Shown here: piece by piece, positions 20,403 to 46,202 of the stretch
Position numbering within the stretch: position 1 is the stretch's first letter
How the letters are laid out: each line of letters opens with the position of its first letter
Notes under the pieces: model-generated
Told to the model about the DNA's origin: nothing
What the model saw: the letters and a program-made list of their open reading frames with translations, nothing else
Databases searched by the model: none
Assembly: GCA_964449445.1 (NCBI GenBank)
Contig: CAYUZT010000003.1
Span: 110,371-174,370, forward strand
Direction: 5' to 3'
DNA length: 64,000 nucleotides
Origin: an uncultured Candidatus Peribacteria bacterium
GTDB taxonomy: Bacteria; Patescibacteriota; Gracilibacteria; Peribacterales; Peribacteraceae
Position numbers and translations under genes: made by a program

Positions 20403-20468
20403 GAAGTCGAAGAGGTCGAGGAATCACACTCCTCGATTTCTTTGATTTCTTCTCTTTCCTCGATTTCC
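20403..20468. repeat. low-complexity hairpin element H1 (GAGGTCGAA-type units) between convergent P4 and pth
   Basis: Purine-rich arm GAAGTCGAAGAGGTCGAGGAATC, loop ACACT, pyrimidine-rich arm CCTCGATTTCTTTGATTTCTTC... The core is TCGAGG/CCTCGA. Outer mismatches are mostly G opposite T. Confidence 0.65.
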
Positions 20469-21025
20469 TACTCCTCCACTTTCTCCATCACAAACTTCGT
20501 CACTAGCTCCGGCAGCATTTTGAGGACCTCTTCGATCTTCTTCTTCTCGTCCGCCGGCGGAGTACTGAGCACCCACGTCGCGAGCTCTTCTCCCTTCGGC
20601 TGCGTTCCGCCAATGCCGATGCGCAGTCGCGGGAATTCTTCGCCCAATGTGACGACAATGGAACGCAGGCCGTTATGCGTTCCCGATCCGCCCTTCATCC
20701 GCAGCCGAACTTCGCCGAGCGGCAGGTCGATATCGTCGCAGAGCACCAGAACTTGTTCCCGCGGATTGAGCTTATAAAATTCAATAAGCTTTCGGATGCA
20801 TTCGCCGGAGCGGTTCACGTACGTCGTCGGCTGGACGAGCAGTACGGGCACCGTGACGATTCTCGCCTCCTGCATGCGGCACAGGAACTTCTGCTGATCT
20901 TTCCAGTCCCCTTCTCCGAACTGCTCGGAGAGAACTTCAACAGCTTGAAAACCGATATTGTGGCGTGTCTTCAGGTACTCCTTGCCGGGATTGCCGAGGC
21001 CGACAATGAGCAGGTGCGGTTTCAT
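20468..21025 (-). CDS. pth: peptidyl-tRNA hydrolase
   Basis: MKPHLLIVGLGNPGKEYLKTRHNIGF and GTHNGLRS motifs. Start at the internal ATG of ORF 20468..21181. Confidence 0.9.
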   Translation of the reverse strand: MKPHLLIVGLGNPGKEYLKTRHNIGFQAVEVLSEQFGEGDWKDQQKFLCRMQEARIVTVPVLLVQPTTYVNRSGECIRKLIEFYKLNPREQVLVLCDDIDLPLGEVRLRMKGGSGTHNGLRSIVVTLGEEFPRLRIGIGGTQPKGEELATWVLSTPPADEKKKIEEVLKMLPELVTKFVMEKVEE

Positions 21026-21032
21026 CGCCGGG

Positions 21033-21722
21033 TCAGATGCGTGAGGAGGTGAATGTTGACCTGCGTGGCCGCGGACGCGCCTGCGGAGAGGGATTCTTTT
21101 CCTTCGTAACGTCCTTCTCGCGAACAGCAGGATCTTTGTTCTCTTTCGTGAGTTCGCCTTCCTGCATGCGCTGCGCGACAAAGGTGGAAATCAATTCCTC
21201 GACGTGCTTCGCATTCTTCAGATTTTTCGTATGGAGATAGGCTTCCATGTTCTTGAGAATCGTCGATTCCACAGCTCGCGGACGCGGAACATTCTCGAGC
21301 GAGACGGTGGATCCCGTGGAGATCTTCTCGATCGCGACCGTGCCGTAGCGCATCACTGTTCCGAGGATCCCGTGGATCTCGTAGCTGACGCCCTGGATGT
21401 CGCTGTAGAGGATGCGCGACGACTGCCGGTGAAACCACCCGAGCCATTCCAGATCGATGATGCCGTGATCGGTGATGATCCAGGCATCCAGATAGTAATC
21501 GAGGAAATTCCGCATCCACCACACGAGCGACGCGATGCCCCAGAGCGCCGCAACGATGACGGTGATCTGCGAGAAGCGGATGGCGAGCAGGAGATCGGCC
21601 AGGAGAAAAGAGACCGTTGGCCAGAGGAGAAATCGAAGGCCGAGCAGCCAGTGCTTGTGCACGATCATCGCGACGTGTTCGTCGTCCTCCAGGTGCTTTT
21701 TGAAGAGGAAACTATCGAGCAT
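21033..21722 (-). CDS. membrane protein with bacterial PH (YdbS/YdbT-like) domain
   Basis: Two N-terminal TM helices are followed by a PH-like segment (ITDHGIIDLEWLGWFHRQSSRILYSDIQGVSYEIHGILGTVMRYGTVAIE). Basic tail. Confidence 0.45.
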   Translation of the reverse strand: MLDSFLFKKHLEDDEHVAMIVHKHWLLGLRFLLWPTVSFLLADLLLAIRFSQITVIVAALWGIASLVWWMRNFLDYYLDAWIITDHGIIDLEWLGWFHRQSSRILYSDIQGVSYEIHGILGTVMRYGTVAIEKISTGSTVSLENVPRPRAVESTILKNMEAYLHTKNLKNAKHVEELISTFVAQRMQEGELTKENKDPAVREKDVTKEKNPSPQARPRPRRSTFTSSRI

Positions 21723-21780
21723 GGCCCTCAGTGTAGCGTTTCGGACAAAGCGCTGTACACCGCTCGAGGCGCTCCGTAGA

Positions 21781-22416
21781 ATGCCCCGGATGAAGCTCCA
21801 AAAGCACGGATTCTGGTATCACCTCCTCGACGTTCTCTTCAATATCGTCGTGATCGTTGCGATCGTGGCGGCCATCCGCACATTCCTCGTCTCGCCGTTC
21901 CAGGTGGAGGGCAGTTCGATGATCGATACGCTCTACGACAAGGAGTACATCATCATCAATAAGTTCGCGTACCTTCTTGGGGAACCCTCGCGCGGGGACG
22001 TTGTGGTGTTCCGCCCTCCCAATGACCGGAAGAAGTACTACGTAAAACGCGTCATCGGCATGCCCGGCGATACCGTGACCATCAAGGACGGATTCGTGTT
22101 CGTCAAAACCCCCGGTGACGACGAGAGACACAAGCTGGAGGAAGCGGAGTACCTGAACTCGCGTAATCTGGGGAACACGTTCCGTCATCCTCCCAGCAGC
22201 GGCGACCGCACGGTGGTGACCTACGACGTTCCGGCAGGTCAGTACTTTCTGCTCGGAGACAACCGTCAGGGAAGCCTGGATTCCCGCAGTTTCACAGGTG
22301 ACGGCGGCAAGCAAACACCCTTCGTTCAGGAGAGCGACATCAAGGGTCGCGTGTGGTTCATTGCGCTCCCGATCACGAAGATTCATGCGCTGGAAGAGCC
22401 GGAGTACGGGCTATAA
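21781..22416 (+). CDS. lepB: signal peptidase I
   Basis: GSSMIDTL, GDVVVFRPP, YVKRVIGMPGDTV, GDNRQGSLDSR. An alternative in-frame ATG lies at 21721. Confidence 0.9.
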   Translation: MPRMKLQKHGFWYHLLDVLFNIVVIVAIVAAIRTFLVSPFQVEGSSMIDTLYDKEYIIINKFAYLLGEPSRGDVVVFRPPNDRKKYYVKRVIGMPGDTVTIKDGFVFVKTPGDDERHKLEEAEYLNSRNLGNTFRHPPSSGDRTVVTYDVPAGQYFLLGDNRQGSLDSRSFTGDGGKQTPFVQESDIKGRVWFIALPITKIHALEEPEYGL

Positions 22417-22420
22417 AAAA

Positions 22421-22547
22421 AGAATCCGACGACTCCGAGGAATCCGAAGAGTCCGAGGTCCAGACGGAAAAGGAGAACGGTAACTTTTCCTCGTTTCACT
22501 ATTTCCCACGCCAACTGGACCTTGGCATCTTCGGAATCTTTGGAGTC
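22421..22547. repeat. low-complexity hairpin element H2 (GGAnTCCGA units) between lepB and secE
   Basis: The 33-nt arms ending at 22463 and starting at 22515 are complementary at 27 of 33 positions by my count. The loop is about 51 nt. Confidence 0.7.
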
Positions 22548-22637
22548 TTTTTTAACGTAAATTTCCCTTGCAGCAGTTCTGATTTCCTGTAACATAAGTA
22601 CGGCCCCTGAGGGCTTTTTTCTTTAGTCTTTCGAACC

Positions 22638-22832
22638 ATGGTCACCACTCTCACCACCTACCTTCGCGAAGCGATTCAGGAACTGGAACTCGTCCGGTGG
22701 CCGACTCGCCAGCAGGCGGTCCGGCTCTCCGTCGTCGTGCTGCTCTTCACGCTTGCGTCCGCAGCGGCGTTCGGGCTCGTGGATTTCCTCCTCAGTTCGC
22801 TCGTCAGTTTCTTGCTCTCCTTCGCCGTCTAA
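22638..22832 (+). CDS. secE: preprotein translocase subunit SecE
   Basis: 64 aa with LREAIQELELVRWPTRQQ followed by a single TM helix. Immediately upstream of nusG. Confidence 0.85.
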   Translation: MVTTLTTYLREAIQELELVRWPTRQQAVRLSVVVLLFTLASAAAFGLVDFLLSSLVSFLLSFAV

Positions 22833-22833
22833 T

Positions 22834-23379
22834 ATGGGCAAACAGGATCCCCGGGCAGGACGGAATTGGTATGTCCTGCACACGTACTCCGGCTACGAAG
22901 ACAGCGTCAAACAGGCGCTTGAGCAACGGGTGGAATCGCTCGGCATGCAGGATTACATTTTCTCGGTCATGGTCCCCAAGGAGAAGCAGCTCGTGTTCAA
23001 AAAGGGCGAGCCGGTGGAAGAGGAAAAAAAGTTGTTTCCCGGATACGTCCTGGTCGACATGATCGTGACGGATGAATCGTGGTACGTCGTCCGCAATACC
23101 CCCAATGTCACCGGTTTCGTCGGCTCCGGAAACATTCCCGTCGCTGTGAGCCCGGAAGAATTCGGCGTCATCGAGCGGCGCATCGGCGAAGAGCAAGCGA
23201 AGTTCAGGAGCGACTTCCAGGTAGGCGATCTGGTGATCATCATCGACGGGCCGTTCAAGAACTACGAAGGCTCCGTGCAGAGCGTGGATGTGAATAAAGG
23301 AAAGCTCAACGTTGCCGTCCTCATTTTCGATCGTGAGACGCCGGTTGAGTTGGACTTCACGCAGGTAAAAAAGAAATAG
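22834..23379 (+). CDS. nusG: transcription termination/antitermination factor NusG
   Basis: WYVLHTYSGYEDSV, LFPGYVLVDM, VRNTPNVTGFVG, and KOW segment GDLVIIIDGPFKNYEGSV. Start at the internal ATG at 22834. Confidence 0.95.
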   Translation: MGKQDPRAGRNWYVLHTYSGYEDSVKQALEQRVESLGMQDYIFSVMVPKEKQLVFKKGEPVEEEKKLFPGYVLVDMIVTDESWYVVRNTPNVTGFVGSGNIPVAVSPEEFGVIERRIGEEQAKFRSDFQVGDLVIIIDGPFKNYEGSVQSVDVNKGKLNVAVLIFDRETPVELDFTQVKKK

Positions 23380-23495
23380 GACTCCGAGGATTCCAAAGAT
23401 TCCAAGGACCAGTTGGAAAGGTCGTAATAAACTGCAGAAAATCTGCGATTCTCGGTATACATCTGGACCTTGGACTCTTCGGAATCTTTGGAATC
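23380..23495. repeat. low-complexity hairpin element H3 (same family as H2 and H9) between nusG and acyP
   Basis: Arms GGACTCCGAGGATTCCAAAGATTCCAAGGACCAG and CTGGACCTTGGACTCTTCGGAATCTTTGGAATC are complementary at 27 of 33 positions by my count. 50-nt loop. Confidence 0.75.
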
Positions 23496-23520
23496 TTTTG
23501 GATTGTTCTATCATACCCTC

Positions 23521-23790
23521 ATGCCCGCTACCCGTATCATCATCTCCGGCCTCGTCCAGGGCGTCTTCTTCCGCGCACAAGCCAAAGAGCAGGCGGATGC
23601 ACTCGGAATTACAGGCTGGGTGCGTAATAACAATGACGGCTCCGTGGAAATTCACGGCGAAGGATCTGACGATATGCTCAATAAGCTCACAGAATGGTGC
23701 CGCACGGGTCCGGAGAAAGCGGTCGTGAAGAATGTCACGGTAACGGTTCCATTGGAGCAGCACTCCCCGGCATTCGAGATCTGGTATTGA
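23521..23790 (+). CDS. acyP: acylphosphatase
   Basis: ISGLVQGVFFRAQAKEQADALGITGWVRNNNDGSVEIHGEG. TATCAT lies 6 nt upstream of the ATG. Confidence 0.85.
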   Translation: MPATRIIISGLVQGVFFRAQAKEQADALGITGWVRNNNDGSVEIHGEGSDDMLNKLTEWCRTGPEKAVVKNVTVTVPLEQHSPAFEIWY

Positions 23791-25084
23791 TGACCTTCAT
23801 CAGGAGCACACCGAGCGCCATCGCCTGCAGGACTTGGCCGACCGCGTATCCGAGAGGAAGACTGAACACGCCGAAGCGCCCTACAAACACCCATGCGATG
23901 GTAATCGCCACGGCAGCAGAGAGCGTCCCGATCACCGCGGGGATCAGCGTGTTTTTGAGCGAGTAGAAGCAGCGCAGCAGAAGATGCGTGGAACTCTCAA
24001 AAGGAATACTCAGCGCGTACAGGATTAAACTCATGCGGAACGCCGGATACCACATGCTCGTGTGCAGGTGAACAAGTTGCGCAGCCACCGGCGCAATCAG
24101 AATCAACACCAGTGCCGCGGGAATCGTCAGCAGGAGCATCATGGCCATCCCCTTCTCCATGTAGATGCGAAATCTGTTCATCTCCCCCCTCGCAGCGGCC
24201 TGTCCCAGGAGCGAGTACGCCGACTGGGCGAGCGCGATGCCCACCACTCCGACGACGACGCTCTGGAAATTGCGCGAGTACGCGTTAATGGTGATGGAAC
24301 CGTTATCAAGACCCGAGGCGACGGTATCAAACAGCAGGAGCTGCAACTGCAGAGCGCCCAGTGCAAACATGCGCGGGAGCATGAGGATTCCCATGTGGTG
24401 GAGATCGGGATGCCAGAGCTTTTTCGGCAAGCGGAACCCCATGCGGAACACGACGGCTCCGCGAACGAGCACGTACACCACTGCCCCCAGGACCGTGCCG
24501 AGCATCGGGCCTTCGACTCCCACAAGCGGGGTCAGAAAGAGCGTTCCGATAATCGTCCCCGCGGTGTAGAGCACCGGCGTGAGGCCGTAGATCCAGTACT
24601 TCTGCTCGGTGATCAGCGCCTGGCCGAAGGAATTGCCGAAGACGAACAGGAAATTCGTCACAAGCGCCAAGCGGCCGAAGTGCACGTAGAGCGCAAGCTC
24701 TTCACCTGTAAATTGGACGAGATACGGGGCCACCCACGGGAGCGCGAGCCCCAGTGCGAGTCCGAGCACACCAAAGAACATGCTGCCGATCGCCATGGTG
24801 CCTCCCAGGACCTGCCACATCTGCGATGTTCTCCCATGCGCTTTGTGCGCCGCGAGCATCGGCACGAACACGGTCCCCAGAGCCGACATCACGCAGACCT
24901 GGAACAGAAGATCGCTTGGACGAAACGACGCGACGTACGCGTCCACAACACCCAGGCCCGGGAACGTGCGGGCGAGCAGATTATCGCGAACCAGACCCGC
25001 GAGTGACGCCGCAAACTGCGTTATAGCAAGGACGATTGCGCCTCCCATCAGGCGATGTTGGTGGAGGAATTGCGGAAGGCGCAT
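23735..25084 (-). CDS. murJ: lipid II flippase MurJ/MviN family
   Basis: Polytopic protein: AASLAGLVRDNLLARTFPGLGVVDAYVASFRPSDLLF, ITINAYSRNFQSVVVGVVGIALAQ. Start at the internal ATG; 56-bp convergent overlap with acyP. Confidence 0.8.
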   Translation of the reverse strand: MRLPQFLHQHRLMGGAIVLAITQFAASLAGLVRDNLLARTFPGLGVVDAYVASFRPSDLLFQVCVMSALGTVFVPMLAAHKAHGRTSQMWQVLGGTMAIGSMFFGVLGLALGLALPWVAPYLVQFTGEELALYVHFGRLALVTNFLFVFGNSFGQALITEQKYWIYGLTPVLYTAGTIIGTLFLTPLVGVEGPMLGTVLGAVVYVLVRGAVVFRMGFRLPKKLWHPDLHHMGILMLPRMFALGALQLQLLLFDTVASGLDNGSITINAYSRNFQSVVVGVVGIALAQSAYSLLGQAAARGEMNRFRIYMEKGMAMMLLLTIPAALVLILIAPVAAQLVHLHTSMWYPAFRMSLILYALSIPFESSTHLLLRCFYSLKNTLIPAVIGTLSAAVAITIAWVFVGRFGVFSLPLGYAVGQVLQAMALGVLLMKVINTRSRMPGSAAPMEPLP

Positions 25085-25134
25085 CCAGGGCAGGATAGCT
25101 GAATGCTGATGCAGATTCCTCCATGAACTTGGGA

Positions 25135-25175
25135 GCGGGCATTCTGCCCGCGTGTCCGCAGGCAAGAATGCCTGC
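25135..25175. promoter_or_regulatory. two adjacent near-identical 7-bp-stem hairpins in the murJ/purL divergent intergenic region
   Basis: GCGGGCA-ttc-TGCCCGC (25135-25151) and GCAGGCA-agaa-TGCCTGC (25158-25175). Confidence 0.35.
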
Positions 25176-25255
25176 TGCTTTATCCGGACTTTGCCTTCGT
25201 GCACCTCTTTGCGTATCTTTCCTCCATAGAAGTCCCTGTTCTCCAGTTTTCGGCG

Positions 25256-27712: not shown

Positions 27713-27730
27713 AAAGTCGGGAGATTGAGA

Positions 27731-27763
27731 CCCAAACCCTAGCCCCAACCCCAACCCCAACCC
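27731..27763. repeat. C-rich tract containing (CCCCAA)3, directly upstream of a TATACT box
   Basis: The tract CCCAAACCCTAGCCCCAACCCCAACCCCAACCC is followed by TATACT (27764-27769), 6 nt, and the ATG at 27776. Confidence 0.8.
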
Positions 27764-27775
27764 TATACTTCTCCC

Positions 27776-29056
27776 ATGCCCACCACCCCCAAGTTCCTTT
27801 TCGTCGCGCTTGTCGCGGTTGCCTCTATCGTTGCGCTTCCCCTCCAGGCTCAGGAGGAGCAAGCCCCTCCGCCCGGGGGCACTATTTACGTCGAGCAGAA
27901 GAGCGAGATTGAAGCCTTCGGCAAATGGACGATGCTCCAACCAACGCATGAATCCTTCGATCGCACCGACACGAAGCTGAGCATGCCCAACATGGTCCCC
28001 GGCAAGTACACCTTCCAGACCGAATCCCCCAGTGGAACCAGCACGCACATCGATATTTTCCTGGGTGACGATATCATCGCGTCGTCCGAGACGCCGCAGA
28101 TCAGTTTTGAACTCCTCGATAAGATGACAGTGAAGCTCGTTGTCACCTACACGCTCACGATCTTCGGAAAAGTGGGGGTGAATAGCGAGCCGGCGGGAAT
28201 CCCGTACACGCTGCGAGGCCCGGATGAGATGATCAAAATAGGCGTAACGCCTGTGGAATATTCGCGACTGCCGATCGGGAACTACAGCGTCACCTTTCGG
28301 CCCGAGGGGTGCCCTCAGCCCCCTGCGCAATCCGGCCTTCTACAAAAGGAGGACCGTGTGAACTTCATGGTGAAACTCGTTTGCGGCTCTTTCCGCGCAG
28401 TAAAAGGCGAGAATGAAGCCGAGCACATTTCCGCGAAAGTGGGAGGGGAGAACGTCACGTTTACCGATGTTCCCGTCGATTCCTGGTTCGGTGCGTATGT
28501 TCTGACCGTCGCCAAGCGCGCCATCATGGCGGGGTATACCGAGAAGAGCGGAAAGCTCACGGGAAAATTCGGTCCCGGCGACCACGTGACCGTCGCGCAG
28601 CTGGCCAAGATCGCGCACACCGTGAACAAGATCAACGAAAACCTTGTAATGACCGCTCCGCTCAATCCCCGCGCCCGCGGCCAGTGGTTTACGCGCTATA
28701 TCGCGTCTGCCGAGGAGCAGGGGTGGCTGGTCTTCGCCGATGGGACGGTTGATCCCAACCGGCCGGCAACGAGAGGCGAAGTGGTTATCACGCTGCTGCA
28801 GGTTTTCGATATACCCATGCACTGGCCCAAGGGGAATGTATTTACCGATGTCGAACGCAAGACTCCGTATTCCGGTGCCATCGAAACCGCTGCGGAGGAA
28901 GAAATCGTCACGGGCAGCACCGATGCAACCGGCAAATCAACGGGACTGTTCCATCCCACAGACTCCATCACGCGTGCGGAGATCGCAAAGATCCTGATTA
29001 CCGTGTACGAGAAGTATCAGACGACCCGCTCGTCATCCTCTGCGCCAGATTCGTGA
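27776..29056 (+). CDS. secreted protein with PEGA-like domain and three C-terminal SLH-like domains
   Basis: Signal peptide, then VNSEPAGIPYTLRG...PIGNYSVTF (PEGA-like). FTDVPVDSWFGAYV...VTVAQLAKI, and FTDVERKTPYSGAIE..ITRAEIAKIL resemble SLH repeats. Confidence 0.6.
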   Translation: MPTTPKFLFVALVAVASIVALPLQAQEEQAPPPGGTIYVEQKSEIEAFGKWTMLQPTHESFDRTDTKLSMPNMVPGKYTFQTESPSGTSTHIDIFLGDDIIASSETPQISFELLDKMTVKLVVTYTLTIFGKVGVNSEPAGIPYTLRGPDEMIKIGVTPVEYSRLPIGNYSVTFRPEGCPQPPAQSGLLQKEDRVNFMVKLVCGSFRAVKGENEAEHISAKVGGENVTFTDVPVDSWFGAYVLTVAKRAIMAGYTEKSGKLTGKFGPGDHVTVAQLAKIAHTVNKINENLVMTAPLNPRARGQWFTRYIASAEEQGWLVFADGTVDPNRPATRGEVVITLLQVFDIPMHWPKGNVFTDVERKTPYSGAIETAAEEEIVTGSTDATGKSTGLFHPTDSITRAEIAKILITVYEKYQTTRSSSSAPDS

Positions 29057-30320: not shown

Positions 30321-30407
30321 AAAGGAGGCAAGGGAGGCAAAGGAGTCAGGAGAGACAAAGGAGAATTTTTCTTTTGCCTCTTTTGCCTCTTTTGTCTCTT
30401 TTGACTC
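30321..30407. repeat. low-complexity hairpin element H4 (GAGGCAAAG units) in the murC/ftsB-like divergent region
   Basis: Purine-rich arm AAAGGAGGCAAGGGAGGCAAAGGAGTCAGGAGAGACAAAGGAG, loop AATTTTT, pyrimidine-rich arm CTTTTGCCTCTTTTGCCTCTTTTGTCTCTTTTGACTC. The pairing register is ambiguous. Confidence 0.7.
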
Positions 30408-30433
30408 ACATTCCCTCTCTCTATCCTGTCGCC

Positions 30434-30877
30434 ATGCCCTATCGAGACCTTGAACCGATGAGCAAGCAACTCACGATCGTGGTGGGGCTCACGGTCGTTG
30501 GTTTCATGGCGTTCGGTCTGGCGCTCTCCTACTACCGAAACATCCTCTTCGATACGCACCTGCAGGAGATCGCCAAGCAGAACGATTTGCTGGAGCAGCG
30601 GATTGAGGAAGAGCAGGGCGACCTGGACTACTACCGCTCCGCCCAGTTCAAGGACAAGTATGCCAAGGAAACGCTCGGCCGCCTGAACCCCGGCGAGAAG
30701 GTCCTCATCATCACGCAGGAACCGTCGCCCGAGATCAGCGCATCCCCCGATGTGAGCTTCAGCGAACAACAGACCGCCGAGTTCGAAGAAACACTGCGTC
30801 AGATGCCGGTCTACCTCCACTGGAGGCTGTATCTTTTCGAACGGGATAAGATCGAAGAACTGAGAAGAGGAGTCTGA
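30434..30877 (+). CDS. septum formation initiator family protein (FtsB/DivIC-like)
   Basis: Single TM helix followed by a coiled coil (LQEIAKQNDLLEQRIEEEQGDLDYYRS.QFKDKYAKETLG). Start at the internal ATG. Confidence 0.55.
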   Translation: MPYRDLEPMSKQLTIVVGLTVVGFMAFGLALSYYRNILFDTHLQEIAKQNDLLEQRIEEEQGDLDYYRSAQFKDKYAKETLGRLNPGEKVLIITQEPSPEISASPDVSFSEQQTAEFEETLRQMPVYLHWRLYLFERDKIEELRRGV

Positions 30878-30882
30878 GATAA

Positions 30883-30977
30883 ATGATCAAGTTTCAAGTA
30901 TCAATCGCAAAGTAAATGTAATAGTTAAAAATTGTAAACTTACAACTTCCTTTGCGATTGATCATTGATCATTTTTT
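30883..30977 (+). terminator. long AT-rich imperfect hairpin ending in a T run
   Basis: ATGATCAA..TCAATCGCAAAG (30901-30912) pairs with CTTTGCGATTGA (30950-30961)..TTGATCAT, followed by TTTTT. This is a local low-GC island between the ftsB-like gene and tRNA-fMet. Confidence 0.55.
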
Positions 30978-31446: not shown

Positions 31447-31480
31447 GACGGTCCTCGGACTCTTTGGACTCCTCGGCTTC
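31447..31480. repeat. solo arm (H5) of the H2/H3/H9 repeat family
   Basis: GACGGTCCTCGGACTCTTTGGACTCCTCGGCTTC aligns with the right arm of H3. No complementary arm is nearby. Confidence 0.6.
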
Positions 31481-31504
31481 TTTAGTTTGGTCTATCATAC
31501 CCTC

Positions 31505-32212
31505 ATGGCTGAAATGGGCGGTCTCGAAATCGGCACACCAGGAGAAGGCGGCTCAGGAGCTCCTGAGCAACTGAGTGAAGAAGCCAAGCAGCGCTTTGCA
31601 GCGGCTGCGGCTGCGATGGCAGCAATCCAACGCGAGGAGAAACGCAGCAAGAAGCGCGATACGCGTGTTGCCCGTACTATCATCCAGTTCCTCAACGACG
31701 ATCGCTTCGCGCACCTCTTCGTCCTCATTTCGCGGCTAGTGGCACGAGACTGTCCGTCGGTCTTCATCCTCGCGATCCTCTCCCTGATCAATGAGGATTG
31801 TCGCACGGTCGTAAAGGAGTACCTGGAGGAGGTGAAGCAGGAAATGAAGGATGCTTCAGCAGACATCGTGACGGATGACATGAACGTCATGGAAGGCGGA
31901 TCGATTGATGCCAAGACCAATAGCATTCTGATTTCCTGGATCACGCGCATGCAGATGGTCATGGCACTCGAAGCGCAGAAGATTCTCGAAAAGCTCATGA
32001 TCGATCAGCACAATATCGACGGAACGGTCTTACAGCTCACTACATTCATTCTTCAGGAGTTCTTCGCATCGGAATCCGGCGGACGCAGAAAAGCTCCATT
32101 CGAATCGTTGCAAGGACTCTCCGTGAGTATTCTCCAGACGGTCTTTGAGCCGTTCCTGGATCTCGTAGACCTGCCAAGTAAACGGGAGGAAGGAAAAGAA
32201 AATGACGAGTAA
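31505..32212 (+). CDS. hypothetical protein
   Basis: ORF 31487..32212. The ATG at 31505 is preceded by TATCAT-ACCCTC, a 17-nt string identical to the one at the acyP start. No recognisable domain. Confidence 0.45.
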   Translation: MAEMGGLEIGTPGEGGSGAPEQLSEEAKQRFAAAAAAMAAIQREEKRSKKRDTRVARTIIQFLNDDRFAHLFVLISRLVARDCPSVFILAILSLINEDCRTVVKEYLEEVKQEMKDASADIVTDDMNVMEGGSIDAKTNSILISWITRMQMVMALEAQKILEKLMIDQHNIDGTVLQLTTFILQEFFASESGGRRKAPFESLQGLSVSILQTVFEPFLDLVDLPSKREEGKENDE

Positions 32213-32305
32213 GAGGCAAAGGAGGCAAGAGAGATAAAAGAGGCAAGGGAGTTTTGTTTTCAGACCTCTTTTTCCTCCTTTGCCTCACTTGCCTCTCTTG
32301 TCTCC
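32213..32305. repeat. low-complexity hairpin element H6 (same GAGGCAAAG family as H4)
   Basis: GAGGCAAAGGAGG (32213-32225) is the exact reverse complement of CCTCCTTTGCCTC (32274-32286). The right arm supplies the last codons and stop of thpR. Confidence 0.7.
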
Positions 32306-35764: not shown

Positions 35765-35797
35765 CTGGTCCTCGGACTCTTCGGAGTCTTCGGACTC
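35765..35797. repeat. solo arm (H7) of the H2/H3/H9 family between the convergent cupin gene and pdxS
   Basis: CTGGTCCTCGGACTCTTCGGAGTCTTCGGACTC. Confidence 0.6.
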
Positions 35798-39556: not shown

Positions 39557-39557
39557 A

Positions 39558-39579
39558 AAGCGGGCCCGAGAGCCCGCTT
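39558..39579. terminator. bidirectional GC hairpin between convergent genes
   Basis: AAGCGGGC-ccgaga-GCCCGCTT, flanked by AAAA on the 5' side and AATTT on the 3' side. Confidence 0.6.
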
Positions 39580-39614
39580 AATTTCACAGTTGTCATCCTG
39601 AGCGTAGCGAAGGA

Positions 39615-39965
39615 TCAGCTCTTGCTTCCAAATCCAACGACCAAGCAGACCGCGGCGATGGCGGCGTGCAGCAGGTTGTCCGCGGTGTTCACGGCGATGA
39701 GGCCGAGAACCGTGGTGCCCTGAACGTAGCCGGCCACAGCGACCACGCCGTAGACGAGACCGAAGATGATCAAAAACATCCTGGCCATGCCGCGGTTACC
39801 GGCTACCAGCAGACCGATAAGGCCGGAAGCGAGGTGGATAATGTTATGAAGCGTGTCGGTTTCGAAAATGCCGAGCAGCGGGCTGGGCATTACGAAGCCG
39901 AGAAGCCCGACGACGAGCAAAACGACCCCGAGAATGCGGGTCAAAGGTGTAACGAGAGATCCCAT
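39615..39965 (-). CDS. DUF4383 family membrane protein
   Basis: GVVLLVVGLLGFV......GIFETDTLHNIIHLASG.IGL. Start at the internal ATG. Confidence 0.65.
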   Translation of the reverse strand: MGSLVTPLTRILGVVLLVVGLLGFVMPSPLLGIFETDTLHNIIHLASGLIGLLVAGNRGMARMFLIIFGLVYGVVAVAGYVQGTTVLGLIAVNTADNLLHAAIAAVCLVVGFGSKS

Positions 39966-40086
39966 AGGGGAAAGGGGGGAAGGAATTTCCTCATACACTA
40001 GCAAAGAGAACTACCGCTGCAATCAAAATTCAAAAAGCTGCAACAGAATATGTACAGAGGAGCAATCATGGTTCAGAGTGATCTCC

Positions 40087-41397
40087 ATGGTGACGAAGAT
40101 CTCTCCTGTCGCGCAATCCGCCCCTCTTGCCTACCGCCTGAGGCCACGGACGCTCAGCGAGTTCATCGGACAAGAAGACGTCGTCGGACCGGATACGCCG
40201 CTCAAGATAGCGATTGAACGGGATCAATTGAGTTCGGCAATCCTTTCCGGACCGCCCGGCACCGGGAAAACCACGCTCGCGCATGTGATCTCCAATATCA
40301 CCGAAGCCCAGTTCGTGCAGGTGAACGCCGTCACGAGCGGCGTGAAGGAACTGAAGGAAATTTGCGCGCATGCCGAGGAACTGCTGAAGAACCTGAAGCA
40401 GCGGACGGTCCTCTTCATCGATGAAATCCACCGGTTCAACCGCTCCCAGCAGGATGCGCTCCTTCCATCCGTGGAAAACGGCAGCGTGATCCTCATCGGC
40501 GCGACGACGCAGAATCCCTACTTCGATGTGAATGCCGCGCTGATTTCCCGTTCGCAGGTGGTGTTGCTAAAGCCTCTCACCATCGAGAACCTCACGGCCA
40601 TTTTGAGAAACGCTCTGGACGATGAACGCGGATTTGCCGGAAACGTGAAAGCAGATGATGCGGTTCTTGAACGCATTGCCCATGTTGCCAATGGCGACGC
40701 GCGCATCGCGCTCAATACGCTGGAGCTGACCATCATGACCGCGGGCAAGAAGCTGACCGTCCAAAACGCCGAGAAAATCCTCCGCCAGAAATCCCTGCGG
40801 TACGATAAATCCGGCGAGGACCATTACAACGTGATTTCCGCGTTCATCAAATCGATGCGCGGATCGGATCCCGATGCCGCGCTCCTCTGGATGTTTCGGA
40901 TGCTCCAGAGTGGCGAAGATCCGCGCTTCATCTTCCGCCGCATGGCGATCTTCGCGTCGGAGGACGTCGGCAATGCCGATCCACGAGCGCTCCAAATGGT
41001 CATCAGCGCGTGGCAGGCGTTTGAACTCGTCGGTCTGCCCGAAGGAGAATTCTTTCTTGCGCACGCATGCGTCTATGTCTCTCAAGCGCCCAAGAGCAAT
41101 GCCGTCACGCGCGCGATGGGAGCCGCAAAACACGCAATGCTCCAGTCCCCCACTCTGGAAGTCCCGAATCACTTGAGGAATGCTCCTGTCAAAGGGATGA
41201 AAGAGCAGGGGTACGGAGTGAATTATGAATATCCGCATAATCACGAGGGAGCAGTCGTCGCCGCCAATTACTTCCCGGTCGGGATGGAGACGCAGAATTT
41301 CTATGAGCCATCGGATCGGGGATTTGAGGCCGATGTGCGCAAGCGAATGCAAGACGTGAAAGCCAAAATTCGGAAAGTGCCGGTCGCAAAGGTGTAG
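40087..41397 (+). CDS. rarA: replication-associated recombination protein A (AAA+ ATPase)
   Basis: LAYRLRPRTLSEFIGQEDVVG, SGPPGTGKTTLA, LFIDEIHRFN, GATTQNPYF, HYNVISAFIKSMRGSDPDAALLW. Confidence 0.9.
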   Translation: MVTKISPVAQSAPLAYRLRPRTLSEFIGQEDVVGPDTPLKIAIERDQLSSAILSGPPGTGKTTLAHVISNITEAQFVQVNAVTSGVKELKEICAHAEELLKNLKQRTVLFIDEIHRFNRSQQDALLPSVENGSVILIGATTQNPYFDVNAALISRSQVVLLKPLTIENLTAILRNALDDERGFAGNVKADDAVLERIAHVANGDARIALNTLELTIMTAGKKLTVQNAEKILRQKSLRYDKSGEDHYNVISAFIKSMRGSDPDAALLWMFRMLQSGEDPRFIFRRMAIFASEDVGNADPRALQMVISAWQAFELVGLPEGEFFLAHACVYVSQAPKSNAVTRAMGAAKHAMLQSPTLEVPNHLRNAPVKGMKEQGYGVNYEYPHNHEGAVVAANYFPVGMETQNFYEPSDRGFEADVRKRMQDVKAKIRKVPVAKV

Positions 41398-41408
41398 CAT
41401 AGGCCCCC

Positions 41409-43604
41409 ATGTTCCTGACCGTCGTCACCGCCTCGCGCTCCGGAGCCATTGGCTCTGGGTTAACGTACGAAGTTGGTGACGCTTCGCAAGCTCCCGCCTA
41501 CGCTGAAGCTTCGGCGGGCAGGCAGCATGACATAAAACCAGGATCGATAGTCAGAGTTCCACTCAGAAAAAGAATCGTGGAAGGAATAGTCATCGAGGTC
41601 ATGAAGAAAAAACTTCAGACCGAGTTCGACCTGAGATTGGTCAAAGACGTGCTGGGCAACTCCCCTCTCCTGACGGAAGCACAGATGAAGACAGTGAAGT
41701 GGATGGCGGAGTACTACTTCTGTTCGCTGCGGCAAGCTCTTCAAGTCTGGCTCCCTCCACCGCCGTGGTCACGACTTCTTCCGGCTGAGATCGTCATGAT
41801 CCGGAAATTCAAAGATGATGTGCCGCGTGGAAAAAAAGCGCTGGCAGTGATGGAATTCCTCAGGGACTCAGAATGGACATCACGTGACACGATCATGCAC
41901 GAGACCGGAGCAAGTACAGCGGTACTCAAAAGGCTCCTTGAGCTTTCATTGATTGAGCAACGGAAAAAACGTGAAAGTCCCGAGCCCGAGCCCGGTCCCG
42001 GTCCCGGTCCCGAAATCACTAATCACCAGACCCTGACCGACGCTCAACGAGAAGTCTATGACGCTATCCGCACCGACCCCCGCCCTTCCCTCCTCTTCGG
42101 CATCACCAGCAGCGGCAAGACCGAAATTTACGCGTCACTGATCGCCGATACTGTCGCGCGCGGCAAACAAGCAATTCTGCTTGTGCCAGAGATTCTGCTC
42201 ACCGAGAACGTTGTCGATCGTTTTGAAAAGCTCCTTCCGCGGGAGCGCATTGCCATTCTGCACAGTCGGCTCAAACCCGCCCAACGCAAAAATGAATGGA
42301 AGCGCATTCACGCGGGCGACGTGAGTTTGGTGATCGGGTCGCGCAGCGCGCTCTTCGCGCCCCTCAAGAACCTCGGCCTCGTGATTCTGGATGAAGAGCA
42401 CGAATGGACCTACAAGAACGAGCAGACGCCGCGCTACCACGCGCGCGAGACTGCCGAGGCGCTCTGCAGGAATGCGAACGCCAAATTGCTGCTCGGAAGC
42501 GCCACTCCGTCGCTTGAATCGTGGGCGCGAGCCAAGAGCGGGTCTTCGACCCGCGGACAATACCATCTTGCCAGGCTTCCCGATCGGTACGGGAGCAACA
42601 GTCTCCCGCAGGTGAAGATCATTGACCTCGCCACTGCCGAGTTCAACTCGCAGTATCCGTTCACGGCAGAGTTGCTCGCGGCAATCGATGCCCGATTGAA
42701 GCTCCAGGAGCAATGTGTTCTCTTTCTTAATCGCAGAGGGATGGCGAGCGCGCTTCTGTGCCTCCAGTGCCGCAGGCGCGTCACGTCACCCGAGTCGCAG
42801 CTGCCCTTCACCGTTCATCACAATGCAGATGGAAAGCCCTACCTGATCGATCACACGACGGGCATCACTGCTCCCGTCCCCGCGCAGTGCCCGCACTGCG
42901 GCAGCGTGAAGCTGCATGAAATTGGAGCAGGGACGCAGCGCATTGAAGCGATTCTCAAGAGTGCTTTTCCGAAAGCGCGCCTGCTGCGGGCGGATACCGA
43001 TACGCTGGAGACGCCTGAGCAGATGCGAAGTCTCCTTGGGAAGATGAAGAACGGCGAAGCGGATATTCTCCTGGGGACGCAAACCGTCGTGAAGGGTCTC
43101 GATCTCCCCAACGTCACGCTGGCGGCTGTGCTCATTGCCGATATCGGGCTGTCGCTGCCGCACTTCCGCGCCGGGGAACGCATTTTGCAACTGCTCACGC
43201 AGCTGACGGGAAGGAGTGGCAGGGCAAAACTCGGCGAGGTGATCATTCAGACGTTCCGTCCCGATGCTCCGGAAGTTCTGGCCGCGGCAAGGCATGAGAC
43301 CGAACGTTACTTGGATGACGAGTTGCACATGCGTAAGCATCTGGGCTATCCGCCGGCAACATCGATGATCCGTCTGCTCGTCCGTGGCCCGAGCGCTCAG
43401 GGCACGGCAAAACAGCTGCACGGAGAACTTCTCAACCGCGGATTGCGCTACGGAAACACCGCAAAAATTTCTTTCGGCCCCACGCTCTTCGGCGGTGGCA
43501 GGGAGTGGCAGGTACTCATACGAGGAGCGCAGCCACGAGAACTCCTCACGGATATGGGTCTGAAAGACATGGTTGTGGATGTTGATCCTATGGAAACGAT
43601 CTAA
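41409..43604 (+). CDS. priA: primosomal protein N' (replication restart helicase)
   Basis: GITSSGKTEIY, ILDEEHEW.YK, and the Cys cluster CLQC....C..CGS. TAGCAT lies 8 nt upstream of the ATG. Confidence 0.9.
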   Translation: MFLTVVTASRSGAIGSGLTYEVGDASQAPAYAEASAGRQHDIKPGSIVRVPLRKRIVEGIVIEVMKKKLQTEFDLRLVKDVLGNSPLLTEAQMKTVKWMAEYYFCSLRQALQVWLPPPPWSRLLPAEIVMIRKFKDDVPRGKKALAVMEFLRDSEWTSRDTIMHETGASTAVLKRLLELSLIEQRKKRESPEPEPGPGPGPEITNHQTLTDAQREVYDAIRTDPRPSLLFGITSSGKTEIYASLIADTVARGKQAILLVPEILLTENVVDRFEKLLPRERIAILHSRLKPAQRKNEWKRIHAGDVSLVIGSRSALFAPLKNLGLVILDEEHEWTYKNEQTPRYHARETAEALCRNANAKLLLGSATPSLESWARAKSGSSTRGQYHLARLPDRYGSNSLPQVKIIDLATAEFNSQYPFTAELLAAIDARLKLQEQCVLFLNRRGMASALLCLQCRRRVTSPESQLPFTVHHNADGKPYLIDHTTGITAPVPAQCPHCGSVKLHEIGAGTQRIEAILKSAFPKARLLRADTDTLETPEQMRSLLGKMKNGEADILLGTQTVVKGLDLPNVTLAAVLIADIGLSLPHFRAGERILQLLTQLTGRSGRAKLGEVIIQTFRPDAPEVLAAARHETERYLDDELHMRKHLGYPPATSMIRLLVRGPSAQGTAKQLHGELLNRGLRYGNTAKISFGPTLFGGGREWQVLIRGAQPRELLTDMGLKDMVVDVDPMETI

Positions 43605-43605
43605 T

Positions 43606-43698
43606 TTTAGCTGGTTAGCTTTTTAGCTTTTTAGCTTATAGAAGGGAAAATCTTTTCACGCTAAGCTAACAAGCTCACAAGCTAAGAAGCTCGCAAGA
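43606..43698. repeat. low-complexity hairpin element H8 (TAGCTT units) between priA and the aquaporin gene
   Basis: Arm TTTTAGCTGGTTAGCTTTTTAGCTTTTTAGCTTAT, a 20-nt loop, then arm GCTAAGCTAACAAGCTCACAAGCTAAGAAGCTCGCAAG. Confidence 0.7.
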
Positions 43699-43731
43699 GA
43701 AACCGAGAATCAAAGGAGTAACCTGATAAAC

Positions 43732-44322
43732 ATGAGTTATCAAGAATATGCAGCCGAATTCCTCGGCACATTCGCCCTCTGCTTCGTCGTCTGGCTCTCC
43801 GTCGCATTCCAGATGCCGTTCTCCACTCCCGTGATGGCGGCGGTCACGCTGGGTCTCTTTGTCTATACCGTGGGAGGAATCAGCGGCGCGCACCTGAACC
43901 CCGCGGTCACCATCGGCATGTTCAGCGCGAACAAGATCAAGACGAACGACGCGCTCATGTACGTCGTCTGTCAGCTCGCGGGTGCCGCAGTCGCCATGAC
44001 GGTGGGACGCCTGATGAGCGGCCAGATTGCATCGGTCACGCACGCGGTCACTCTTACGGCAGGAATCGGCGAAGCGATCGGCGCGTTCTTCCTGGCATTC
44101 GGCGTGATGTCTGCAACGATCCAGAAAATTCCCCCGGCTGCAGCGGGTCTGGTGGTCGGAAGCTCGCTCCTGATCGGCATCTACGCCGCATTTCCCTTCA
44201 GCAATGCGATCATCAACCCCGCAGTGGCGCTGTCGGTGAACTCCTTCGGGCCGATGGAAATCCTCGGGCCGCTGGTGGGCGCCGTGTGCGGAGCGTGGGC
44301 GAGGGTGAAGTTGGAAAAATGA
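43732..44322 (+). CDS. MIP/aquaporin family channel (short form)
   Basis: Two NPA boxes: SGAHLNPAVTIG and AIINPAVALS. Confidence 0.8.
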   Translation: MSYQEYAAEFLGTFALCFVVWLSVAFQMPFSTPVMAAVTLGLFVYTVGGISGAHLNPAVTIGMFSANKIKTNDALMYVVCQLAGAAVAMTVGRLMSGQIASVTHAVTLTAGIGEAIGAFFLAFGVMSATIQKIPPAAAGLVVGSSLLIGIYAAFPFSNAIINPAVALSVNSFGPMEILGPLVGAVCGAWARVKLEK

Positions 44323-44323
44323 A

Positions 44324-44791
44324 TCACGAATCATGATTGACTGTCCGCAAATAATGCAGCGCTATCCCCGCTGCAACTGCGACGTTCAATGATTCTTTTT
44401 TTCCATACATGGGAATCTTCACCACGCTCTCCGCTTGCGTGAGAATTTCTTCCGGCACGCCACTCAGTTCGTGTCCCACAACAAGGCAGATTTTCTCCTG
44501 AGGGGAGAACGTCTCAAGATCTACGGCATCATCGGTCAGCTCGAGAGCGACAATAGACCATCCTTCTTTCTTCAATGCTGCAATGACGGTCAGCGGATCG
44601 GTCGCCTGCTCCCACGGAATCGTGTCCTCAGCACCAAGCGCCGTCTTCGTGATTTCCTTGCGGGGTGGTGTACCGGTGTAGCCGGTCAGATAGATTTTCT
44701 CGACGCCAAATGCATCGCATGTCCGGAAAAATGATCCTACATTCCAGAGAGAGCGGACATTATGTGCCAGAAGACAGAGACGTCTGTTCAT
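44324..44791 (-). CDS. SpoU/TrmH family RNA 2'-O-methyltransferase
   Basis: NVGSFFRTCDAFG, LVVGHELSGV, IPMYGKKESLNVAVAAGIAL. Confidence 0.8.
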   Translation of the reverse strand: MNRRLCLLAHNVRSLWNVGSFFRTCDAFGVEKIYLTGYTGTPPRKEITKTALGAEDTIPWEQATDPLTVIAALKKEGWSIVALELTDDAVDLETFSPQEKICLVVGHELSGVPEEILTQAESVVKIPMYGKKESLNVAVAAGIALHYLRTVNHDS

Positions 44792-46038
44792 ACCATCAGG
44801 CGTTCAAGCGTGCTTGCGTGAGGATTTGCGAAGACCTCAAGTAATTCTGATGAACACAATTCTTGATCAGATATATCCTCTATCCCATAAGCTATTCCTG
44901 TTTCACTTCCCTTTCCAAAAGCACCTGCACCGGTATCGGGAATATCCCTGCGCAGCAGGATGACCTTCGAGAGAGAAGACCCGAGCGATTGCTCAGACTT
45001 TGTTATCGCATTCCACCCTTTCCATTCCCCGCCTCTGCGAATGATCGCGCGTTCCTTGTTCGCGTTGAAGACCGTCAGGTCCGAAAGAACGTTTGCAACG
45101 GAAGAATCTGGAACGCTGAAGTACTTCCATTGTTTCAGTGTGAGTGACGGAGCAACTCGCCTCGCCGCTTGCTCCACCGTTCGCTCTTCGTTATTGGTGA
45201 TGATGGTTTCAATAAAAATCTCTGCTTCTTTGGGTTTCCGAGAAGGTAGTTCAATTTTTTGAGAAGAAGTCGTCGGTCCCGTTGGTCCCCTCTGTCCCCT
45301 CGGTCCCCTCTCAATCCACTGCTTCATCGACGCAAAGTACGCATCTCCTCTGCCTTGAGCCCTCTCGGGATGCGGCATCAGCGCAATCACATTGCCCGCA
45401 GGATTACAGATGCCCGCAATCGCGAGCATGGAGCCGTTCGGTGTAATGAGAGGATCTTCACTGACGCTTCCGGCAGCGTCACAGTAGGAGAATGCGATCT
45501 GATCATTCTTCTTCAACTCCTGGATGAGGTCTCTGTCTCTCGTTGTGAACCTTCCCTCACCGTGGGCAATGGGAATCTGCATCACGCCATCCCAATGACT
45601 CGTCGCGCATCGGTCTTTTGTACAGGTACGGGTGATCCAGATCCATTCGCTGAGGAGCGGCAGCCCCTGGATTCCCTGCTGCGTCTTGATAGCGTTGCGC
45701 GCAAGGCTCATCTCCAGACCCTCTCCATAGGGAATCAATCCGCTTTCCACCAGCACCTGTGCGCCATTGCAGATCCCAATCACTACTTTACCTTCATCTG
45801 CTTCCACGCGGATGAAGTCCATCAACGGATCACGCGCTGCAACCATTCCGCTGCGACCACGATCTTCGTACGCAAACCCACCGGGGATAAAATACCCGTC
45901 AATGTCTGTGAGGAGCTTGCGGTCATCATTCCACCGGAAGAACACCGGTTCCATGCCATTCCTCCGTATGACGCGCATCGATTCGACCTCCCCGTTGTTT
46001 CCGGGAAAAGAGACGATGGCGATGCGGGGGGTGCGCAT
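44788..46038 (-). CDS. purQ: phosphoribosylformylglycinamidine synthase I (PurQ glutaminase) fused to a C-terminal PurS-like region
   Basis: [31 protein letters not shown]. After a [12 protein letters not shown] linker comes a tail of about 150 aa ending [17 protein letters not shown] (PurS-like). TACACT lies 6 nt upstream of the ATG. Confidence 0.75.
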
Positions 46039-46075
46039 GACCGAAGTGTAGCAGAAGGAATTATTGACCAAGAAA

Positions 46076-46202
46076 GGACTCCGAGGATTCCGAGGATTCC
46101 GAAGAGTCCGAGGACCAGTTGGCAATATTGTTATCTAGCGGGAAGAAGTTCGCGATTCTCGGTGTACATCTGGACCTTGGCATCCTCGGAATCTTTGGAA
46201 TC
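46076..46202. repeat. low-complexity hairpin element H9 (same family as H2/H3) between frr and purQ
   Basis: The 33-nt arms are complementary at 26 of 33 positions by my count. The 3' half of the loop, GCGATTCTCGGTGTACAT, matches H3. Confidence 0.75.

Follow-up and report, generated by a model that had tools for sequence, protein, structure and literature searches.

Inverted pairs of short tandem-repeat arrays form hairpins at gene boundaries of a Candidatus Peribacteria genome

Hairpins built from repeat units

A 64,000-nucleotide (nt) stretch of DNA from a Candidatus Peribacteria bacterium (the window, whose numbering is used for all element coordinates) was analysed for hairpins at gene boundaries. 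Seven such hairpins (H1, H2, H3, H4, H6, H8 and H9) were confirmed to be real and far beyond chance expectation, and they were shown to be inverted pairs of long-unit simple-sequence-repeat arrays. In the usual layout, a purine- and G-rich array with units of 7-9 nt comes first, then a loop and then a complementary pyrimidine-rich array. The elements named in an initial annotation of the sequence were all recovered, exactly or a few bases off, and its view that the same architecture recurs with differing units at different loci was confirmed.

Both-arms-periodic hairpins were found seven times in the window, compared to a mean of 0.025 in 40 first-order Markov simulations. When plus-strand RNA was folded and compared with dinucleotide-shuffled controls, a check proposed in the initial annotation, z-scores of -3.3 to -7.1 were obtained for the seven hairpins: H1, -29.0 kcal/mol (z = -5.2); H2, -62.4 kcal/mol (z = -7.1); H3, -50.1 kcal/mol (z = -6.0); H4, -46.3 kcal/mol (z = -6.0); H6, -47.0 kcal/mol (z = -4.7); H8, -32.8 kcal/mol (z = -3.3, the weakest of the seven); and H9, -55.9 kcal/mol (z = -4.0). 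The predicted stems comprise 20-43 pairs. The plus strand folded better for all seven window hairpins regardless of gene direction, and hairpins of related species gave mixed results. Arm complementarity was determined by a gap-free inverted-repeat scan, as Watson-Crick pairs over arm length with G.U pairs counted in addition. The value for H2 (27/33, plus 3 G.U) was exactly that counted earlier, and H3 (30/38) and H9 (28/36) were scored over longer arms than the 33 nt used previously. The remaining values were 26/35 plus 8 G.U for H4, 32/44 plus 6 G.U for H6, 25/30 for H8 and 16/20 plus 4 G.U for H1.

Tandem Repeats Finder assigned a period of 9 to both arms of H1, H2, H3, H4, H6 and H9, a period of 8 to H8 and a period of 7 to both arrays of family 5, which flank a four-helix-bundle gene; our own scanner gave arm periodicity scores of 0.58-0.93. 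Given its period of 8, the unit of H8 (family 3) is TTTTAGCT and not the 6-mer TAGCTT suggested earlier. The description of the families as unrelated in sequence also needs to be narrowed, since the 9-mers of families 1, 2 and 4 all follow the pattern GAG-NNN-RAR and are thus not wholly unrelated. Among 42 unit-built hairpins and brackets, the 5' arm was the purine-rich one in 30 cases against 5, and in 39 its G skew exceeded that of the 3' arm, a polarity that a chance palindrome would not show. It was present on both strands, with H8 among the few reversed cases.

The elements are not clustered regularly interspaced short palindromic repeat (CRISPR) arrays, because their units are contiguous and degenerate and lack spacers, nor are they classical repetitive extragenic palindromic (REP) sequences, because units vary among loci and no conserved REP head is present; on both points the initial annotation was right. 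A search of the window against Rfam 15 returned only tRNAs and no hairpin at gathering score, the hairpins matching microRNA-precursor models below threshold.

Gene context

Gene context was taken from public gene calls and Pfam. The elements and the features next to them are as follows.

H1, 20403-20468: family 4; stem at 20403-20449 with units GAAGTCGAA/GAGGTCGAG, pyrimidine array continuing to 20468; between the convergent DUF11-domain gene (stop 20388-20390) and pth (stop 20468-20470)
H2, 22421-22547: family 1 (GGAnTCCGA units); begins 4 nt past the lepB stop; tandem spacer between lepB and secE-nusG
Short GC hairpin with T-run, 22602-22622, plus strand: upstream of secE; terminator-like, not unit-built
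H3, 23380-23495: family 1; begins directly at the end of the nusG stop; tandem spacer; followed on its 3' side by TATCAT, 6 nt and the ATG of an acylphosphatase gene
Solo direct (CCCCAA)n array, 27730-27763, plus strand: followed by TATACT, 6 nt and the ATG of an SLH-domain gene
H4, 30321-30407: family 2 (GAGGCAAAG units); divergent spacer between a murC-like gene (start 30305, minus strand) and a DivIC-like gene (start 30434, plus strand)
Eighth hairpin, 30886-30973: 22-nt arms with 19 positions paired, outer 7-nt units, T-run after it; between the DivIC-like gene and tRNA-Met
Solo arm 1, 31447-31480, plus strand: family-1 pyrimidine arm; tandem spacer between the L27 gene and a gene for a 235-aa protein
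H6, 32213-32305: family 2; convergent spacer between the 235-aa gene and thpR
Solo arm 2, 35765-35797, minus strand: family 1, purine-rich on the minus strand; 5 nt past the pdxS stop; convergent spacer between a cupin gene and pdxS
H8, 43606-43698: family 3, 8-nt units TTTTAGCT/AAGCTAAC; tandem spacer between priA and a MIP-channel gene; polarity reversed, T-rich arm first
H9, 46076-46202: family 1; tandem spacer between frr and a GATase_5 gene, both on the minus strand
Family-5 downstream array, 46741-46768, minus strand: (YTCCTAA)n on the mRNA strand, reaching up to the frr ATG
Four-helix-bundle gene, 46762-47118, minus strand: Pfam 23S_rRNA_IVP (E = 5.7e-33); between pyrH and frr
Family-5 upstream array, 47141-47162, minus strand: (TTAGGAR)n on the mRNA strand, starting 5 nt past the pyrH stop

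The eighth hairpin and the solo (CCCCAA)n array belong to the same set as the seven hairpins. According to the gene calls, all eight hairpins and the solo arrays are intergenic, and arrays that follow a gene begin 0-12 nt past its stop codon, in agreement with the proposed location at gene boundaries; the exception to this proximity is H4, which sits between two gene starts. Between 22 and 57 kb, arrays were present in about half of the spacers of at least 40 nt, all of these arrays lying within 22-47 kb. The proposal that H6 and H1 supply stop codons holds for thpR, whose last codons and stop lie within the right arm of H6; the pth stop is located at the end of the H1 pyrimidine array but outside the paired stem. 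Hairpins of the same family often stand as neighbouring pairs around one gene or a short block. H2 and H3 (22421-22547 with 23380-23495) flank secE-nusG, H4 and H6 (30370-30407 with 32213-32250) enclose the block that begins with the DivIC-like gene and ends with the 235-aa gene, and a further same-family pair was seen at locus L114 (3099-3167 with 4190-4311).

In 18 of the 37 window genes, the start codon is preceded at 5-9 nt by a TAnnnT box (for example at 23509-23523, 27764-27778, 30423-30436, 31493-31507 and 46036-46050), which is the hallmark of leaderless messages; a Shine-Dalgarno-like motif was found for one of the 37. Judged by these motifs, the genome seems to depend mainly on leaderless messages. 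The same pattern was present in six of seven relatives at a lower or similar frequency (25-57% of genes). The distance from the far arm of an element to the next TAnnnT box was 0-25 nt.

Tandem repeats with periods of 9, 18, 27 and 42 nt were also noted inside coding regions, in the GATase_5 gene, two genes for DUF11-type surface proteins and a histidine kinase gene (45273-45310; 16673-16715; 17834-17999; 6617-6700); with periods that are multiples of three, they suggest that this genome is generally prone to unit slippage. Two related, near-perfect palindromes that are not unit-built lie 250 nt apart at 63326-63380 (GTAGAGACGCAAAATTTTGCGTCT...) and 63571-63637 (GTAAAGACGCAACATGTTGC...).

Turnover in related species

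Syntenic loci of seven species (L129, L130, L131, L132, L254, L255 and L256) were reached via NusG homologues; homologues of 79-92% identity belong to Peribacteria wherever they carry a name. In species whose NusG proteins are 83-91% identical, orthologous boundaries carried hairpins of different units or a plain terminator. Downstream of nusG, where the window has the 9-mers of H3, hairpins of three different 7-mers were found in L130 (TTGGTTT), L131 (AGTGGTC) and L256 (GTTTTTG), an ordinary GC hairpin with a T-run in L129, and no hairpin in L132, L254 and L255. Hairpins of other units also occupied the lepB-secE boundary (H2 in the window) in L130 and L256, the divergent boundary between murC and the DivIC gene (H4) in L129 and L256, and the boundary between the DUF11-type gene and pth (H1) in L130. 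The short hairpin next to secE persisted in L129 (~2486-2506), L130 (~9785-9805) and L132/L133 (~1590-1612 in L132), less clearly in L131, and the rest of the spacer changed. The comparison of orthologous intergenic regions, as suggested in the initial annotation, thus showed that the structure recurs and that the unit sequence turns over quickly.

Over the window and the seven relatives, unit-built hairpins were present in 10 of 46 tandem, 4 of 30 divergent and 2 of 19 convergent spacers. The divergent cases are H4, L129 1631-1727, L129 7489-7557 and L256 17600-17692, and hairpins between divergent genes imply that the elements are not only 3'-end elements. No variation in unit number was detected in nine public contigs covering 22-57 kb (from H2 onward, H1 lying outside), which derive from six sequencing runs or assemblies and are 100% identical to the window.

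Locus L256 additionally contains a gene with a weak Pfam hit to Y1 transposases of the IS200/REP-associated tyrosine transposase (RAYT) type (6722-7171). It is flanked by a GC-rich hairpin repeat (CCAGAGCGGCCGTTCCCGGCCGCGG..., 6592-6670 and 7172-7393) that is not unit-built. A link of the unit-built hairpins to a Y1 transposase was rejected, because this gene has its own, different flanking hairpins.

Dispersal of family 1

In the window, 18 occurrences of the family-1 double unit GGANTCYTYGGANTC were counted, both solo arms included, compared to 0.54 expected. Hairpins of this family, with GGAnTCCRA arms and an inner stem GGACCAG...CTGGTCC, were identified at no fewer than nine loci (>=9) in metagenome-assembled genomes (MAGs) of Peribacteria with a GC content of 50% to 60%. 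A pattern scan over one genome per species yielded 119 stretches, 14 of them in Candidatus Peribacteria or Peregrinibacteria MAGs and the remainder mostly in Streptomyces, where they resemble coding repeats; a metagenome scan for family-1 arms was swamped by collagen-like Gly-X-Y coding repeats and gave one hairpin only.

The loops measure 13 to ~200 nt and include three recurring types. Loops of the H2 type recur next to hup in L042 and, in L106, upstream of an aminotransferase gene; H3 and H9 have homologous loops, and those of L005 and L081 are alike. As these contexts are non-orthologous, the family is dispersed; it is common to many Peribacteria species. No direct flanking or target-site duplications were seen at its copies, and the palindrome runs on into an A-tract to its left and a T-tract to its right. 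An exact TCTATCATACCCTCATG, which extends to the start codon, is common to the right flanks of H3 and solo arm 1. Family-1 arms paired no better with their own than with foreign arms (mean rank of the own partner, 5.75 of 12), and co-evolution of own arms was discarded, with no sign of it in this family and a weak one only in family 5.

Outside the Peribacteria, unit-built hairpins with 7- and 9-nt units, one of them with family-1-like GGAATCCAA units, were observed in an Acidobacteria MAG and a Saprospiraceae MAG (L049 1235-1368 and 3563-3630; L076 794-981, 3640-3705 and 7486-7656; L063 1139-1202).

The public gene calls place a 70-aa open reading frame (ORF) across H2 on the minus strand (22383-22595), antisense to the end of lepB. 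A small protein with an acidic and then a glycine-zipper-like hydrophobic stretch, readable on both strands, was considered and rejected, as the frames are not kept among H2, L042 and L106, stops interrupt H3 and H9, and no Pfam match was obtained. The ORF is probably an artefact of the palindrome, and it has the practical implication that gene callers put spurious small ORFs over such hairpins.

Brackets around the four-helix-bundle gene

The four-helix-bundle gene occupies the same position between pyrH and frr in two other Peribacteria genomes (75-76% identity), and a 65%-identical copy lies between rpiB and rpe in an unrelated contig of the Candidate Phyla Radiation (CPR). At all four loci, (TTAGGAR)n precedes and (YTCCTAA)n follows the gene, the downstream array stopping 0-8 nt before the ATG of the next gene. 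The four-helix-bundle gene of the window sits in the loop of a family-5 stem between pyrH and frr, and the bracket was found around the gene in the window, L257, L258, L260 and the phage contig L337. The gene-boundary hairpins were shown to be structurally the same device as the brackets of this gene.

Twelve further copies of the gene family, from plasmids of cyanobacteria and Gemmatimonadota, were inspected. Inverted tandem arrays bracket ten of them, and every bracket has a unit of its own (TAGGGAG, TTAGCTG, AAGGGAA, AAAGCTA, AAGGCAG, GGGCAGGA, TCAGGAG, GGTGACA, a GGGGAGA-like unit and AAGGGGA); the remaining two are copies of one Nostoc gene and have kept the downstream array alone. TTAGCTG resembles the unit of H8 and AAGGCAG that of family 2. 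In the unrelated CPR contig L260, inverted arrays with units of 8 nt (1210-1251 and 1726-1767) likewise enclose a PDDEXK_3 gene (1297-1704), with the four-helix-bundle gene two genes downstream. On plasmids of Pseudanabaena (L388) and Anabaena sp. 90 (L393), the bracketed four-helix-bundle gene was found between cas6 and cas4 of a CRISPR-Cas locus. A search of the accessible literature for TTAGGAG or TAGGAAT arrays, or for repeats around PF05635 genes, found nothing relevant, which is no proof of novelty.

(TTAGGAR)n arrays proved very common in viral contigs, with at least 120 loci at GC contents of 0.24 to 0.70. Among the viral loci listed, there were 42 close inverted pairs and 183 solo arrays. 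Of the latter, 131 lay in sense orientation after a co-oriented gene, compared to 35 in the other orientation. This strand-specific bias suggests a role at the RNA level, though the arrays counted are those of phage contigs and not the window hairpins. Contig L356 represents a phage head module, a co-directional row of genes for terminase, portal, protease and capsid proteins, in which most gene gaps contain a hairpin composed of (TTAGGAG)n, a loop and (CTCCTAA)n. The stop codon TAG is the first unit in the purine array, and the pyrimidine array reaches the ATG in most gaps. As termination at every gap of a presumably co-transcribed late operon would be self-defeating, the L356 stems must have another function there.

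Possible functions and origins

We lean, tentatively, towards a function of the stems in RNA, as long double-stranded markers of transcript boundaries that serve 3'-end formation or processing by ribonuclease III (RNase III). Arms would grow and shrink by slipped-strand duplication of whole units, in steps of 7-9 pairs, and the two arms would probably be kept alike by template switching inside the palindrome; together, these processes could explain why related species have unrelated units at the same boundary. The stems would then fix where the upstream message ends, and shield that 3' end, in a genome that nearly lacks Shine-Dalgarno sites and uses TAnnnT boxes. Some may act by termination (H1 on the plus strand, H2 and H3 with their U-rich tails and, more weakly, H9), and most may be targets of an RNase III-type, double-strand-specific nuclease that separates neighbouring cistrons. 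Processing by RNase III fits the modelled stem lengths and experimentally studied analogues: the predicted stems reach the size required by the enzyme (some two turns, at least 20 bp, of almost uninterrupted double-stranded RNA) and lie far beyond the need of a terminator, and an RNase III homologue is encoded in the Peribacteria locus L069.

Several observations weigh against this function. H4 and three hairpins of relatives lie in divergent spacers with the TAnnnT boxes outside the hairpin, so that they may not be transcribed; the better-folding strand ignores gene direction, as in H9, which folds better on the plus strand despite its minus-strand flanking genes; and most hairpins lack U-runs. 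No unit-built hairpins were found in L254 and L255 (20 kb each) and L132 (10 kb), which indicates that they are dispensable, and the absence of own-partner preference in family 1 means that there is no sign of compensatory evolution. The excess of G.U over A.C pairs (27 vs 6) was not used as proof of an RNA function, because the scoring favours G.U and the fold strand ignores gene direction. Two ideas about the sequence of the arrays were dropped as well. As read-through tails, arrays after stops were in a charged-residue frame in three of five cases, no different from the one in three expected by chance, and three-frame stop codons as the cause of 7-nt units were not clearly above chance and inapplicable to 9-mers.

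The principal rival to an RNA boundary function is that the hairpins are neutral or selfish palindromes, produced by slippage and template switching and tolerated in spacers, with family 1 dispersed in the manner of MITEs (miniature inverted-repeat transposable elements). We regard it as possible, if somewhat improbable. It would account for the very fast turnover at orthologous sites and the absence of hairpins from some relatives, the similar rates in all three spacer classes, the lack of own-arm co-evolution in family 1, the family-1 copies with similar loops at the non-orthologous hup (L042) and aminotransferase gene (L106) sites, the local same-family clusters (H2/H3, H4/H6 and the L114 pair) and the solo arms, which resemble decayed copies. 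Yet the genomes are small and compact (~1.4 Mb, from one relative's contig) and nevertheless maintain arrays in about half of the larger spacers between 22 and 47 kb, and the arrays have a strong purine-to-pyrimidine polarity and a tight register to stop and start codons. Moreover, target-site duplications were not seen at the family-1 copies, whose A-tract and T-tract flanks continue the palindrome, and no transposase is linked to the hairpins, the sole Y1 gene (L256) having different GC-rich ones.

It is rather unlikely, but worth stating, that the unit-built stems are the housing of tiny selfish cassettes, carrying a four-helix-bundle gene or possibly a PDDEXK_3 gene, that insert into mRNA spacers as well as rRNA. 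The stem would make the insertion harmless, and the gene-less elements H1-H9 would be empty or decayed forms or landing pads. Harmlessness may result from excision by RNase III or from juxtaposition of the upstream stop and the downstream start, such that the host operon still works. The cassette reading of the initial annotation found unexpected support in the family-5 bracket, which is conserved in several genomes, and in the bracketing of 10 of 12 plasmid copies; the gene-less hairpins may be footprints of lost cassettes.

A role as bidirectional intrinsic terminators or insulators, whose unusually long stems would stop polymerase from either side, is doubtful. The previous statement that they mostly lack T-runs is correct for H4, H6, H8 and most hairpins of relatives, but T-runs follow the stems of H2 and H3 on both strands; the T-rich tail of H1 is confined to the plus strand, and those of H9 are weaker and on both strands. 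The T content of the 9-nt 3' flanks is 0.37 compared to a background of 0.24, family-1 copies lie between a left-hand A-tract and a right-hand T-tract, an ordinary terminator stands at the position of H3 in L129, and a consensus scan picked H1. Termination as the sole role, however, is hard to reconcile with the general scarcity of T-runs, with hairpins in divergent spacers, away from the 3' end of any transcription unit, and with the similar rates in the spacer classes. In addition, 55 nt past H2 comes the separate terminator-like hairpin, which has a T-run and is kept in relatives, and family-5-type hairpins stand between most genes of the phage head operon, whose genes are presumably co-transcribed.

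A role in translation, in which the base of the stem joins the upstream stop to the downstream start for a shunt-like hand-over of ribosomes, even across an inserted gene, seems improbable for the set. It draws on the purine array that starts 5 nt past the pyrH stop and the pyrimidine array that ends at the frr ATG, on the like arrangement in L257 and L260, on the stop-to-ATG geometry of most L356 gaps and on a textbook comparison, in which UUAGGAG is a near-perfect Shine-Dalgarno core and CUCCUAA is like the 3' tail of 16S rRNA. H2, H3, H4 and H9, in contrast, are separated from the next start codon by 11-90 nt that include a TAnnnT box, so that the stop-start geometry fits family 5 only, and the host genome hardly uses Shine-Dalgarno sites.

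Finally, action at the DNA level, as cruciforms, protein-binding arrays (for promoters, supercoiling or replication) or phase-variable tracts, is very unlikely: it could draw on the arms and solo arrays directly upstream of TAnnnT boxes (H3, H4, H9, solo arm 1 and (CCCCAA)n), on the better folding of one strand in all seven hairpins, which could reflect extrusion on one replication template, and on GANTC inside the family-1 units, but units vary by locus, so that no single binding protein fits, the distance from arm to TAnnnT box ranges from 0 to 25 nt, the nine identical contigs show no unit-number variation, and the 9-nt and 7-nt periods differ from the helical repeat of DNA. The pyrimidine arm was likewise rejected as a -35 box: TTG recurs in it, but its spacing to TAnnnT varies over 0-25 nt, and (CCCCAA)n lacks TTG.

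Comparison with known systems

REP sequences, bacterial interspersed mosaic elements (BIMEs) and REP doublets (REPINs) with their RAYT genes are, like the window hairpins, dispersed extragenic palindromes with long hairpins, but the window elements have no conserved head, arms made of tandem arrays, mostly private units and no cognate flanked Y1 gene. MITEs are resembled by family 1 in its many copies over several species and its long hairpin, although no target-site duplication was seen, and the other families occupy single or paired loci. Hairpins that lie between cistrons and set or guard the ends of messages are also found in phage T7, as its intercistronic RNase III sites, and among intrinsic terminators. 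Neither kind is made of tandem units; terminators, moreover, have much shorter stems and depend on a U-tract.

Tandem heptamers are known from cyanobacteria, the short tandemly repeated repetitive (STRR) sequences being one example. Other heptamers of cyanobacteria and Beggiatoaceae (TAACTGA; in Nostoc, TTTTGAA and GACCAAT) are intergenic, near start codons or promoters, lineage-specific and unexplained (PMC4679880; bioRxiv 10.1101/2022.06.06.494920). They have mostly been described as direct arrays, in contrast to the paired inverted arrays found here. In the 5' untranslated region of Haemophilus influenzae hmw, RNase III cleaves a hairpin that has (ATCTTTC)10 as its left arm and that is needed for changes in repeat number (PMC12721329). 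It shares with the window elements a long RNA hairpin with a tandem-heptamer arm, but only one of its arms is an array, it belongs to a single 5'-untranslated locus, and it is phase-variable, whereas no variation was seen for the window hairpins.

The intervening sequences of 23S rRNA, some of which carry a 23S_rRNA_IVP gene, are stems excised by RNase III. Intervening sequences with a 23S_rRNA_IVP ORF are mentioned in PMC10053308. As in the present case, an inverted-repeat stem occurs in gene-less and gene-bearing forms, with the same gene family in the loop; the window elements differ in that they lie in mRNA spacers between protein-coding genes and not in rRNA helices, and the window contains no rRNA. 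We know of no report of unit-built arms in rRNA intervening sequences. The bracket device was consistent around this gene family in CPR bacteria, cyanobacteria, Gemmatimonadota and phage contigs, and the link to a gene family provides a handle on the function of the repeats and on how intervening-sequence genes move and stay harmless. The connections to the four-helix-bundle family and to the phage operon are the ones most worth following up.

The closest published precedent are the inverted pairs of (GGGAATC)n arrays in Xanthomonas. X. campestris and X. citri contain 70-75 such pairs per genome, which could form stem-loops; the arrays are 89-93% intergenic, lie on average 28 nt from the end of the upstream ORF and have lengths that are not conserved in sister species, 7-8% of them are located in divergent spacers, and their function is unexplained, with a G-quadruplex hypothesis published (PMC4692102). 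Tandem arms of degenerate short units, convergent arrays and a location between genes, close to where the upstream ORF stops, are all found here too, and family 1 has the same unit core, GGAATC. The two systems differ in that Xanthomonas has one dominant unit genome-wide, whereas several units occur here within 26 kb; in that the window units are mostly 9 nt long and cannot form G-quadruplexes; and in that divergent spacers are not depleted here. Paired arrays of the Xanthomonas type had been recorded without an explanation, and they are now seen to be common in a CPR lineage, with many units in one genome and differing units at the same boundaries of related species.

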